Below are positions 39,128-41,028 of a DNA stretch of 64,000 nt, piece after piece. A program made the translations under genes and the position numbers. The notes under the pieces were generated by a model. It saw nothing but the letters and a program-made list of their open reading frames with translations, did no database searches and was not told the origin of the DNA. Source of the DNA: Shigella phage CM8; sequence record MK962750. The stretch is one strand, 5' to 3'. Numbering within the stretch: the stretch's first letter is position 1; each line of letters opens with the position of its first letter.

Positions 39128-39352
39128 TTATTCAACGCCAGCGGCTTTCAAAAGTTTCTTAAGATTGGCAACACCTTGAGCAGAAAATGTGACCTTGCCA
39201 CCTTTTTCACTGATAGAACCAACCAATTTAGCAAGTTTATCATTAGGAATTTTTTTAAAATCAGCCAATGTTCCATCAAAGGTTTTTGAAACAAAAGGCA
39301 GTTCGTCTTCGCGTCTTTTAGCTTCTACAATAAATTCTTGATATGTTTTCAT
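39128..39352 (-). CDS. Internal (capsid-targeted) protein A with T4-type leader MKTYQEFIVEA
   Basis: ATG at 39350-39352 gives MKTYQEFIVEAKRREDELPF... (74 aa); leader matches the T4 internal-protein capsid-targeting sequence as recalled. Confidence 0.65.
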   Translation of the reverse strand: MKTYQEFIVEAKRREDELPFVSKTFDGTLADFKKIPNDKLAKLVGSISEKGGKVTFSAQGVANLKKLLKAAGVE

Positions 39353-39385
39353 TTTAGTTTCCATTTGAGTGTTTGTTTTGATAGG

Positions 39386-39418
39386 GTAATAGTATCACTA
39401 CTAAAACCCAATGTAAAC
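39386..39418 (-). promoter_or_regulatory. Early-promoter-like module (repeated before each gene of the internal-protein locus)
   Basis: tgtaaac at 39412-39418 and gtaatagtatcac at 39386-39398; near-identical copies near 39090-39125, 39745-39790, 40070-40120, 40360-40392, 40720-40765 and 41045-41095. Confidence 0.5.
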
Positions 39419-39436
39419 AACTTTGTGAAAAATTTA

Positions 39437-39724
39437 TTACAAAAGATTTTTAGCAATAATCTTGAGATGTGCCGCAGAAATGTGTTTAGCTTTAAACAAC
39501 GCAGTTTCTTCAGCAGGAGAGATAACGATTGTAGCACCATCCTTTTTAGCAGACCACCCATCGCCTAGGTAAACAGTACCTTTGATTTCTTCGCCATCAA
39601 CCAGACTAATCATTGGTTTACCTTCTCGTCCTTTATTTGCTTTAATAACTTCAGAAGTAAGAGTAGCTTCGGTAATAGTAGAAACCGGGGTAGTTGTAGA
39701 AGTAAATTCTTTGAAAGTTTTCAT
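39437..39724 (-). CDS. Internal (capsid-targeted) protein B, copy 1 (leader MKTFKEF)
   Basis: 95 aa, [25 protein letters not shown]...; ITE motifs fit prohead-protease sites; differs from copy 2 only in the last ~9 residues. Confidence 0.6.
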   Translation of the reverse strand: MKTFKEFTSTTTPVSTITEATLTSEVIKANKGREGKPMISLVDGEEIKGTVYLGDGWSAKKDGATIVISPAEETALFKAKHISAAHLKIIAKNLL

Positions 39725-39796
39725 TTTATTTTCCTAATTAATTTTGATAGGGTAATAGTATCACAACTAAAACCCTATGTAAACAACTTTGTGAAA

Positions 39797-40054
39797 TTAT
39801 TTTAAATCTTCTAATCGTTTCTTCATCTTAGAACCGTTCTTAGCGATTTCGCCTGCATCAGAGCATAATGCTAAAAGCGCTTTAACTTTAGTTTGGTCTC
39901 CTTTAAAAGATGAAGGATCAACAGCAGCAGCAAGTTCTTTAATACGAGAGAAAAGACGCTCAGCTTCAGCTAAAGCCATTCCAAGCTTTACTTCCATACC
40001 GCGGGAAGATTCAGTAATAGTAGTTTTTGTAGCAAACTCTTTGAAAGTTTTCAT
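39797..40054 (-). CDS. Internal (capsid-targeted) protein C, copy 1 (leader MKTFKEF)
   Basis: 85 aa, MKTFKEFATKTTITESSRGME...; identical to 40771-41028. Confidence 0.6.
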   Translation of the reverse strand: MKTFKEFATKTTITESSRGMEVKLGMALAEAERLFSRIKELAAAVDPSSFKGDQTKVKALLALCSDAGEIAKNGSKMKKRLEDLK

Positions 40055-40126
40055 TTTATTTTCCTAATTAATTTTGATGAGGTAATAGTATCACTACCTC
40101 ATCAGTATGTAAACAACTTTGTGAAA

Positions 40127-40372
40127 TTATTTTAAATCGTCTGCCCAATCAACTTTAAGAGGTTCTTTATATTCACGATCTAATACGACCGGAATTTGTA
40201 CATCACCGCTAAATGATAAGGGCCCAACATTATAAGACAATGTTATATGCGGTGTGTAATCATCAAAATCGTGTGTAGCACCTAGTGCCCGCGCATACAT
40301 ATGTCGACAGCGCAGATATTCAGAATCTAGCACAAGTACTGAGTGTTTGTTTTGATAGGGTAATAGTATCAC
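40127..40372 (-). pseudogene. Truncated chimeric copy of 57B (3' ~180 nt of 57B fused to a 19-codon leader from repeat-junction sequence)
   Basis: C-terminal 60 aa identical to 57B ([28 protein letters not shown]...); sequence upstream of 40339 is the duplication junction. Confidence 0.6.
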
Positions 40373-40410
40373 TACTAAAACCCAATGTAAACAACTTTGT
40401 GAAAAATTTA

Positions 40411-40698
40411 TTACAATAGTATTCTATCATTAATCTTAAAATGTGCCGCAGAAATGTGTTTAGCTTTAAACAACGCAGTTTCTTCAGCAGGAGAGATAAC
40501 GATTGTAGCACCATCCTTTTTAGCAGACCACCCATCGCCTAGGTAAACAGTACCTTTGATTTCTTCGCCATCAACCAGACTAATCATTGGTTTACCTTCT
40601 CGTCCTTTATTTGCTTTAATAACTTCAGAAGTAAGAGTAGCTTCGGTAATAGTAGAAACCGGGGTAGTTGTAGAAGTAAATTCTTTGAAAGTTTTCAT
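40411..40698 (-). CDS. Internal (capsid-targeted) protein B, copy 2
   Basis: 95 aa; identical to copy 1 through residue 86, then [10 protein letters not shown] versus HLKIIAKNLL. Confidence 0.6.
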
Positions 40699-40770
40699 TT
40701 TATTTTCCTAATTAATTTTGATAGGGTAATAGTATCACAACTAAAACCCTATGTAAACAACTTTGTGAAA

Positions 40771-41028
40771 TTATTTTAAATCTTCTAATCGTTTCTTCAT
40801 CTTAGAACCGTTCTTAGCGATTTCGCCTGCATCAGAGCATAATGCTAAAAGCGCTTTAACTTTAGTTTGGTCTCCTTTAAAAGATGAAGGATCAACAGCA
40901 GCAGCAAGTTCTTTAATACGAGAGAAAAGACGCTCAGCTTCAGCTAAAGCCATTCCAAGCTTTACTTCCATACCGCGGGAAGATTCAGTAATAGTAGTTT
41001 TTGTAGCAAACTCTTTGAAAGTTTTCAT
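40771..41028 (-). CDS. Internal (capsid-targeted) protein C, copy 2
   Basis: 85 aa, identical to 39797-40054. Confidence 0.6.
   Translation of the reverse strand: MKTFKEFATKTTITESSRGMEVKLGMALAEAERLFSRIKELAAAVDPSSFKGDQTKVKALLALCSDAGEIAKNGSKMKKRLEDLK

Follow-up and report, generated by a model that had tools for sequence, protein, structure and literature searches.

The segment between positions 39128 and 41028 of the Shigella phage CM8 sequence (a Tequatrovirus; record MK962750), in which every gene is on the minus strand, raises two questions: what its row of small genes with capsid-targeting leaders encodes, and whether all of these genes are actually there. The analysis was carried out on a window, i.e. 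the whole stretch of 64,000 nucleotides that contains the segment. An earlier note had described three small proteins of 74, 95 and 85 aa; these ORFs are indeed present, on the minus strand, but the interval holds five leader-bearing genes (ip8, two copies of ipI and two copies of ip5), and the array has this five-gene appearance because a 974-bp unit, made up of ipI, ip5 and a 3' portion of 57B, occurs there in two successive copies. The segment is very probably a classical T4-like internal-protein (IP) cassette array, located between 57B/acb1 and tRNA.4. IPI, Ip5 and Ip8, together with their leaders, their promoter cassettes and the variable make-up of the region from 57B to tRNA.4, are known from the literature and from hundreds of deposited genomes. 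The sole unusual feature of the CM8 locus is the head-to-tail repeat, which may be an assembly error.

The interval between 57B and tRNA.4 is the hypervariable internal-protein locus of T-even phages, as the earlier note had recognized, and its content varies among the relatives of CM8: T4 carries only ipI, ime09 only ip5, RB14 ip5-ipI, T4_ev240 ip5-ipI-ip8 and RB15 ip5-ip9-ip7-ip8. Counted as single copy, the order in CM8 is 57B - ip5 - ipI - ip8 - tRNA.4, with ipI in the place that ip9 and ip7 occupy between ip5 and ip8 in RB15. The conserved flank tRNA.4 (38881..39066, minus strand) encodes a 61-aa membrane protein (phrog_1692, E-value 6e-35) and has the same position in T4, RB14 and T4_ev240. 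On the other side, the full-length 57B (152 aa; 41101..41559, minus strand) matches the Pfam family PF23474 (Acb1) with 201 bits (E-value 7.5e-60) and exhibits the HxT/HxT tetrad (H44-S-T46 and H113-I-T115), in agreement with the catalytic residues of T4 Acb1 (PMC9117128). By homology, CM8 57B is assigned as Acb1, the anti-CBASS cyclic-nucleotide phosphodiesterase of the 2H type known as T4 gp57B.

IPI is represented by two 95-aa ORFs. In copy A (39437..39724, minus strand) residues 20-95, which correspond to mature IPI*, are identical at 76 of 76 positions to chain A of PDB entry 2JUB (IPI*, "Internal protein I"), and the precursor matches the Pfam family IPI_T4 (PF11634) with 180 bits, against a cut-off of 25. 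Copy A agrees with T4 IPI not only over the whole mature protein, but also in the 19-residue leader and in the position adjacent to 57B, whereas ipI of T4 stands alone between 57B and tRNA.4 and that of CM8 is flanked by ip5 and ip8 and appears twice. On the strength of this match we identify the 95-aa protein as T4 IPI itself and not as an IPI replacement. Its target is thus a known one, the type IV restriction enzyme GmrSD, and the sequence identity indicates that the product of copy A should inhibit GmrSD (CT596). Copy B (40411..40698, minus strand) also matches IPI_T4, with 166 bits, but its C-terminus, HLKIIAKNLL in copy A, has been rewritten, so that 5 of the last 9 residues (87, 90, 91, 92 and 93) differ from T4 IPI and 2JUB.

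Ip5 is encoded by two identical ORFs of 85 codons, copy A (39797..40054, minus strand; phrog_3499, similar to RB14 Ip5) and copy B (40771..41028, minus strand; phrog_3499, internal head protein, E-value 1.2e-48), with a predicted mature start at S16. The protein exhibits 98.8% identity to RB14 Ip5 and shares a 90% cluster with T6 Ip5, which assigns it to the family already named Ip5 in T2, T6 and RB14. Ip8 (74 aa; 39128..39352, minus strand; predicted mature start A11) belongs to phrog_8765 (internal virion protein, E-value 2e-25), is 97.3% identical to RB15 Ip8 (EMBL Z35082) and shares a 90% cluster with K3 Ip8; by the same reasoning it is assigned to Ip8, a name already in use for RB15 and K3. 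PHROGs labels Ip5, IPI and Ip8 all as internal head or virion proteins. The Ip5/Ip8 nomenclature is reportedly that of Repoila et al. 1994, as it appears in EMBL record Z35082 and in the papers that cite it. Compared with the counterparts from T2, T6, RB14, RB15 and K3, the CM8 proteins are 97-99% identical, begin with the same leaders and have the same neighbors, ip5 beside 57B and ip8 beside tRNA.4.

Both families are confined to T4-like phages. An Ip8-like gene was found in 106 phage records and an Ip5-like gene in 495, with approximately 267 of the latter at an identity of at least 80%, and the search for remote homologs of Ip5 yielded just 3 clusters among 1.84 billion representatives. 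The comparison with T4 IPI by profiles and structures, proposed in the earlier note as a check, was decisive for the 95-aa protein and gave nothing comparable for the other two: no Pfam family matches Ip5 or Ip8, the predicted three-helix fold of Ip5 (pLDDT 85) has a best structural hit with an uninformative E-value of 5, and the predicted small alpha/beta structure of Ip8 (pLDDT 69) has a best PDB hit with an E-value of 0.05, likewise uninformative.

All five ORFs of the array begin with the motif MKT[FY]x[EK]F and contain an I-x-E site, a combination that in its strict form is absent from every other ORF in the 64 kb. The T4-type capsid-targeting leaders with prohead-protease sites, proposed previously, are thereby confirmed, with I-x-E in each leader. 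A capsid-targeting sequence (CTS), i.e. an N-terminus resembling MKTYQEFIAE and ending in an L/I-x-E site for gp21 (for the sequence and the cleavage rule see PMC8442874 and PMC9026906), which characterises the T-even head proteins Ip1-Ip13, is present in Ip8, IPI and Ip5. The Ip8 leader, MKTYQEFIVE, differs from the T4 CTS MKTYQEFIAE (PMC8442874) by a single residue and is predicted to be cut before A, and both E10 and A11 are invariant across the Ip8 family alignment; the Ip5 leader, MKTFKEFATKTTITE, is predicted to be cut before S, and the 19-residue leader of IPI ends in ITE/A. After cleavage the proteins are predicted to be basic (pI 8.3-9.8).

If the CM8 proteins behave as described in the literature on T4, the leader would steer each of them into the scaffolding core of the prohead, where the gp21 prohead protease would cleave after the I-x-E site (E10 in Ip8, E19 in IPI, E15 in Ip5); the mature proteins, present in hundreds of copies, would remain in the head and be ejected along with the DNA, upon which IPI* would inhibit GmrSD, which otherwise cleaves DNA containing glucosyl-hmC. 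Ip5 and Ip8 most likely inhibit other host nucleases, probably other subtypes of GmrSD. IPI/Ip1, Ip2 and Ip3 are known to block one GmrSD subtype each (PMC12373910). In the same study, Silas et al. assayed another ten ip genes for activity against another five GmrSD systems, where they observed no new inhibition; the searchable text of the supplement names neither Ip5 nor Ip8 (PMC12373910). A literature search for proteomics of Ip5 and Ip8 returned only papers on inositol phosphates and no virion data on either protein. The earlier suggestion of candidate anti-defence proteins with unknown targets stands for Ip5 and Ip8, but not for the 95-aa protein, which is IPI with GmrSD as its target.

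Each leader-bearing ORF is preceded by one copy of a module of the form GTTTACA-N15-GATACTATTACC, in agreement with the claim that every gene possesses its own copy of the same promoter module. With up to 3 mismatches allowed, 9 matches were observed in the window versus 0.02 expected by chance, and 7 of the 9 are exact copies, all seven inside the IP locus. These seven copies carry, on the coding strand, the promoter TTTACA-17-TACTAT, which fits TTTACW-N17-TAYWAT, the consensus of the PeSL promoters of T4 and PST (PMC4122927). All of them are on the minus strand. Type a modules precede ip5 copy A (40081..40114, identified by the pattern and the promoter) and ip5 copy B (41055..41088, TTTACA-17-TACTAT with a TG extension), and type b modules precede ipI copy A (39751..39784, pattern and promoter) and ipI copy B (40725..40758, pattern, promoter and fold). 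The type c module upstream of ip8 (39385..39418, pattern and promoter) has an identical counterpart at 40359..40392, which now faces the fragment of 57B rather than ip8, and the last module (39091..39124, pattern and promoter), with which the cassette array ends on the right, precedes tRNA.4. The module at 41055..41088 is identical to the one in the intergenic region between 57B and ipI in T4, and it is predicted to form the hairpin UGAUGAGGUAGUG/UAUUACCUCAUCA (-17.4 kcal/mol, z-score -3.4). The hairpins of the four modules that were folded have energies of -13 to -17 kcal/mol, with z-scores of -2.6 to -3.4 in three cases and -1.4 in the fourth, and their arms vary between module types in complementary fashion (GGG/CCC vs GAGG/CCUC).

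This organization is the same as that of the PeSL (promoter-early stem-loop) cassettes, mobile regulatory elements of T4-type phages in which a hyperplastic region contains small variable ORFs flanked by a repeated early promoter and a stem-loop (Arbiol et al. 2010; Comeau et al. 2014). It differs from the RB49 archetype in that the CM8 hairpin encloses or overlaps the -10 box, while the RB49 hairpin is upstream of the promoter. In each CM8 cassette, an early promoter overlapped by a hairpin (PeSL-type) and a ribosome-binding site precede the gene for a small, basic, CTS-led protein. No consensus late promoter is found within the array (the nearest one on the coding strand is at 42142-42149), so that late expression, at the time of head assembly, is presumed. 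The intergenic modules of T4, RB14, ime09 and T4_ev240 are chimeras of CM8 modules, with breakpoints within the shared core: the module between ipI and tRNA.4 in T4 and RB14 combines the 5' part of CM8 module c with the 3' part of the tRNA.4 module, and the ip5-to-tRNA.4 module of ime09 and the ip5-to-ipI module of RB14 are chimeric as well. Breakpoints inside the modules are as expected if cassettes are gained and lost by recombination between modules.

Self-comparison of the window revealed that the 974-bp units A (39366..40339) and B (40340..41313) are arranged head to tail, each comprising the 70 3'-terminal codons of 57B along with ip5 and ipI, and that they are identical at 966 of 974 positions. 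The 57B fragment (40127..40339, minus strand) sits between the two ip5/ipI sets, corresponds to residues 83-152 and aligns only with positions 75-144 of the Pfam Acb1 profile. It lacks the first HxT motif of Acb1 (H44/T46) and a start signal and retains the second HxT motif, and we therefore regard it as a fragment. At the junction (40339/40340) codon 83 of 57B is joined to TGAGTGTTTG; one side of the junction is in mid-57B and the other lies 13 nt outside a promoter module. The tandem repeat, the truncated copy of 57B and the altered C-terminus of the second ipI had been missed in the earlier note.

The only difference between the two units is a patch of 8 substitutions within 24 nt (40417..40440, equivalent to 39443-39466 in unit A). 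The substitutions read C>T, C>T, T>A, C>A, A>G, A>T, T>A and T>A on the coding strand, and their effect is limited to the last 9 residues of IPI. Among the 165 phage records that carry ipI the best match to the patch is 90%, no partial hit was obtained in 50,697 phage records (the scope of the phage-record search), and the patch is absent from IMG/VR. The exact copy B protein has no other known source than Shigella phage CM8 (QEG04825.1), under which the exact Ip5 and Ip8 proteins are recorded as well, and an exact-protein look-up revealed no independent occurrence of the variant. Three candidate origins of the patch were rejected: mutagenesis by a DGR-type retroelement, as the changes are not adenine-specific; patch conversion or quasi-palindrome correction templated by a donor close by, as matches in the window do not exceed 10 nt and are no better than those of the unmutated control; and a natural ipI allele as donor, as N90, D91, R92 and I93 occur in 0 of 41 IPI clusters. 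These four residues are likewise found in 0 of 15 other aligned members of the family.

We lean towards the interpretation that the repeat is an untrimmed overlap of contig ends or a finishing error, and that the phage carries a single copy each of ipI and ip5. Because the genomes of T4-like phages are circularly permuted, an assembler would yield a single contig with overlapping ends; if such a contig was re-linearised at rIIA and the overlap left untrimmed, a head-to-tail duplication would result at the old contig ends. The patch would then be a minority allele in the lysate that kept the two ends apart for the assembler, or an error. CM8 was assembled with MIRA 4.0.2 from 2x250 MiSeq reads (PMC6832132), and the repeat exceeds the length of any read. 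JK38, the sister genome reported in that study, begins exactly at the end of the rIIA CDS, which implies that those records were rotated by hand. In addition, the junction exhibits 0 bp of in-register microhomology (39365/39366 vs 40339/40340; 40340 vs 41314) and lies outside the promoter modules, while natural cassette junctions lie inside them and amplifications obtained experimentally in T4 rely on 6-10 bp of microhomology (PMC9391042). The units are otherwise identical, with every difference 78-101 nt from the junction; the junction itself is found in no other phage record, IMG/VR contig or JGI metagenome contig, and no other phage record carries two copies of ipI (165 records gave 165 matching places). 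However, eight substitutions in 24 nt between perfect flanks are unlike the low-quality tails of reads and probably reflect real DNA molecules, the patch preserves the reading frame and the stop codon, and the repeat is located in a defence-related locus, more plastic than any other in the genome, where copy number could plausibly be under selection.

Possible, but in our opinion more doubtful, is a real and recent segmental duplication of the "genomic accordion" type, which would double the dose of injected IPI and Ip5 encoded by the ipI-ip5 anti-restriction cassette, with one ipI diverging at the C-terminal helix, possibly in the direction of a GmrSD variant resistant to standard IPI*. Counter-defence genes of T4 readily undergo tandem segmental amplification (tifA; PMC9391042), single-chain GmrSD variants immune to IPI* exist (PMC3012670), and IP inhibitors are subtype-specific (PMC12373910). 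Both duplicated ip genes have kept complete promoter modules, and 7 of the 8 changed nucleotides of the patch are in codons with an altered amino acid, within an intact ORF and confined to the extreme C-terminus. As in the amplification of dmd-tifA in T4 (Srikant et al. 2022; PMC9391042) and in the accordion of poxvirus K3L, anti-defence genes with their promoters are arranged head to tail. On the other hand, the tifA, rII and genes 16-18 amplifications of T4 have their junctions at short microhomologies, whereas in CM8 there is none, there are only two copies, and neither a selection history nor read-level support accompanies them. The duplicate also drags along a useless fragment of 57B, in a highly recombinogenic phage a perfect 974-bp tandem repeat is unstable in the absence of selection, and the strains used to isolate and propagate CM8 were prophage-free laboratory E. 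coli (PMC6832132). According to the family alignment, the variant IPI has Asn at an always-hydrophobic position and a change of a nearly invariant Lys; it is without counterpart among 41 IPI clusters drawn from 5.8 billion proteins, and the entire case is a single short-read assembly. We regard an assembly artefact as at least as likely as an accordion amplification. The more specific proposal, that CM8 is a wild T4-like phage caught just after an ipI-ip5 duplication and that the remodelled C-terminal helix of IPI is an accordion step to a new specificity, e.g. for IPI*-resistant variants of GmrSD, appears unlikely.

We consider very improbable the reading of the earlier note, in which three distinct, diversified and uncharacterised injected proteins, all with unknown targets, take the place of the IPI of T4. 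Its account of the leaders, the cleavage motifs and the promoter modules holds, and it fits Ip5 and Ip8 in so far as these come from T4-like-only families with neither Pfam matches nor structural neighbors. However, for the 95-aa protein it is refuted by the identity to 2JUB, and the names and database entries of Ip5 and Ip8 date from the 1990s (EMBL Z35082), with similar genes in the phage records counted above.

Ip5 and Ip8 are good candidates for inhibitors of defence nucleases, which is an already accepted expectation. The deposited CM8 genome, also present in RefSeq, probably carries an untrimmed 974-bp overlap; in that case its gene count is inflated by the second ip5, the variant ipI and the pseudo-57B, and the variant IPI (QEG04825.1) needs checking before databases spread it as a natural allele. 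If, alternatively, both the repeat and the allele are real, the locus would capture, in a natural phage, the rarely seen expansion in copy number and incipient divergence of an injected anti-restriction protein, and it would provide a direct handle on the part of IPI* that sets the specificity for GmrSD.

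The genes of this region are all carried by the minus strand, where 57A (41556-41786), first in the order of transcription, and 57B (41101-41559) are followed by an 85-aa ORF (ip5 copy B, 40771-41028), a 95-aa ORF (ipI copy B, 40411-40698), a 213-nt fragment with the 70 3'-terminal codons of 57B (40127-40339), the 85-aa ORF again (ip5 copy A, 39797-40054), the 95-aa ORF again (ipI copy A, 39437-39724), a 74-aa ORF (ip8, 39128-39352) and finally tRNA.4 (38881-39066). The three leader-bearing proteins described in the earlier note are real and distinct, but the interval 39128-41028 holds five genes encoding them: a scan of all six frames found the leader motif in exactly five ORFs in 64 kb, all in this locus. 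Outside it, a 157-aa ORF at 34497-34970 (-), which matches the function-unknown family phrog_2280, begins with a capsid-targeting-like leader with an L-x-E site (MKSYTQFLNE/A) and may be a further internal protein.

The 95-aa protein of copy A matches the Pfam family IPI_T4 with 180 bits, and over residues 20-95 it agrees at 76 of 76 positions with the T4 IPI* chain whose structure has been solved (PDB 2JUB); judged by sequence, it is T4 internal protein I itself. Its mature N-terminus, which follows ITE19, is the one known from experiment. The 85-aa protein exhibits 98.8% identity to the RB14 protein annotated as Ip5, shares a 90% cluster with T6 Ip5 and is 98% identical to T2 Ip5, while the 74-aa protein is 97.3% identical to RB15 Ip8 (EMBL Z35082, locus order 57B-ip5-ip9-ip7-ip8-tRNA.4) and clusters with K3 Ip8. 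In PHROGs, all three are listed among the internal head or virion proteins, and their predicted mature forms are short (64-76 aa) and basic (pI 8.3-9.8). The Ip8 leader MKTYQEFIVE matches the capsid-targeting sequence of T4, MKTYQEFIAE (PMC8442874), at all residues but one, and the gp21 cleavage rule is L/I-x-E (PMC9026906). Ip8-like genes were found in 106 phage records and Ip5-like genes in 495 (~267 of them at an identity of at least 80%), both families being restricted to T4-like phages; neither Ip5 nor Ip8 matched a Pfam family, and comparison of their predicted structures returned no informative neighbours. The adjacent 57B is Acb1, an anti-CBASS nuclease (201 bits, both HxT motifs present), and therefore the region is an anti-defence island. 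The observation and the interpretation in the earlier note hold in part: the locus is of the T4 internal-protein kind but already known, and all three proteins are members of named families, one of them with a known target.

This analysis establishes the gene identities, the leaders and cleavage motifs, the promoter modules, and the cassette architecture with its variation between phages. In T4, the leader directs the protein to the scaffolding core and is cut off by gp21, each head retains about a thousand IP molecules, which remain with the DNA and are ejected into the host cell, and IPI* blocks GmrSD (PMC12373910, PMC3012670, PMC9026906, PMC8442874). By analogy, Ip5 and Ip8 would act in the same mode on other host nucleases. 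Late expression would reach the array by read-through from upstream, because the closest late box of consensus type on its coding strand is at 42142-42149.

Nine matches to the pattern GTTTACA-N15-GATACTATTACC occur in the window when up to 3 mismatches are allowed (0.02 expected by chance); seven of them are exact, and these seven all lie on the coding strand of this locus. The promoter scan of these modules (types a and b upstream of ip5 and ipI, type c upstream of ip8 and of the 57B fragment, and one upstream of tRNA.4) identified TTTACA-17-TACTAT with a TG extension, in agreement with TTTACW-N17-TAYWAT, the consensus published for PeSL promoters of the T4/PST pair (PMC4122927). Folding predicts a possible hairpin in each module (-13 to -17 kcal/mol), whose arms show complementary differences between module types. 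Two further, more diverged copies outside the locus, at 19539-19572 (1 mismatch) and 7334-7367 (3 mismatches), both (-), probably represent additional early promoters of the PeSL type.

The content of the locus varies among relatives: ipI alone in T4, ip5 alone in ime09, ip5-ipI in RB14, ip5-ipI-ip8 in T4_ev240, ipI-ip8 in two metagenome contigs, and ipI, two other ORFs and ip8 in UFV-AREG1. Sequence comparison revealed that T4, RB14, ime09 and T4_ev240 have chimeric intergenic modules, composed of parts of the CM8 modules and with breakpoints that fall in the shared core; for instance, the T4/RB14 ipI-to-tRNA.4 module combines the 5' part of the CM8 ipI-to-ip8 module with the 3' part of the ip8-to-tRNA.4 module. 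Such a pattern would be expected if cassettes were gained and lost through recombination between modules, a route proposed by Arbiol et al. (PMC2839356). The RB14 ip5-to-ipI module (2051-2128 of the RB14 locus sequence) joins a type b left arm to a type a right arm, GGGGTTTTAG...ATCTCATC; these arms no longer pair well, and their sequences suggest a crossover between the two hairpin arms.

The tRNA cluster of the window contains only 6 tRNAs. A 216-aa GIY-YIG (SegB-like) homing-endonuclease ORF (36156-36806, -) lies between tRNA-Ser and tRNA-Gly, the place of tRNA-Pro in T4 and RB14, and an HNH endonuclease ORF (36983-37591, -; phrog_14736, E 5e-124) comes immediately after tRNA-Leu, at the site that holds tRNA-Gln in T4 and RB14 and a 609-bp (202-aa) ORF in T4_ev240.

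The duplicated genes belong to a head-to-tail 974-bp repeat (39366-40339 and 40340-41313), each unit of which comprises module c, ipI, module b, ip5, module a and 57B codons 83-152. Together with the short promoter-module repeats, which lie in this locus too, it accounts for every long repeat in the window. The units agree at 966 positions, and all 8 mismatches fall within a 24-nt patch (39443-39466/40417-40440), altering five of the last nine IPI residues so that HLKIIAKNLL is rewritten in copy B. Seven of the 8 substitutions lie in codons with an amino-acid change, and the frame and stop codon are intact. Across 15 other aligned members of the family, position 90 holds hydrophobic residues throughout and K92 hardly varies; N90, D91, R92 and I93 of the variant are absent from all 15. 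The window contains no donor for the patch. The exact variant protein is on record only for Shigella phage CM8, a 167,247-bp Tequatrovirus (QEG04825.1), and the accession order of QEG04821 (Ip8) and QEG04823/QEG04826 (two Ip5 copies) mirrors the gene order, which identifies the window as CM8. The mechanical ORF list also contains an 81-aa GTG-started ORF (40127-40372, -) spanning the 57B fragment, whose start codon falls inside a promoter module and ahead of the point where transcription should begin; to judge by the accession run, the deposited genome apparently lists it as a protein (QEG04824). It is most likely a pseudogene fragment.

We lean towards the repeat being an assembly artefact. 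CM8 was assembled with MIRA 4.0.2 from 2x250 MiSeq reads (PMC6832132). JK38, a sister genome from the same study, starts exactly at the end of rIIA, so the records of that study were re-linearised by hand. A circularly permuted genome yields a contig with overlapping ends, which, if rotated without trimming, would leave a tandem repeat with an arbitrary junction. This would account for the perfect identity of the remaining unit, for the differences sitting close to the junction, and for the uniqueness of the structure: a contiguous junction was found in none of the 495 phage records matching the junction region and a second ipI copy in none of the 165 ipI-bearing records, among which the best match to the patch was 90%; neither junction nor patch was found in IMG/VR, nor the junction in JGI metagenomes. 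It would also account for the junction, which fuses mid-57B to a point 13 nt outside module c with 0 in-register microhomology, and is therefore unlike module-mediated exchanges between phages and unlike the junctions in T4 amplifications obtained experimentally, which have 6-10 bp of microhomology (PMC9391042). The clean patch of 8 substitutions in 24 nt, bordered by perfect sequence, is however not easily explained in this way; it looks like real DNA, perhaps a minority allele of the lysate whose presence led the assembler to keep the two ends apart.

The less probable reading is that the duplication is real and recent, and that one of its ipI copies is diverging; the tifA amplification is a precedent in kind (PMC9391042), but the type of junction speaks against it, as do the expected instability of such repeats, the propagation of CM8 on laboratory hosts and the odd substitutions. 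Mixed or other origins are improbable. Altogether, the 974-bp repeat with its variant ipI is the sole non-routine feature of the locus, at least as likely a product of assembly as of biology; as a real duplication, it would be in keeping with an arms race against IPI*-escaping GmrSD variants (PMC12373910, PMC3012670).
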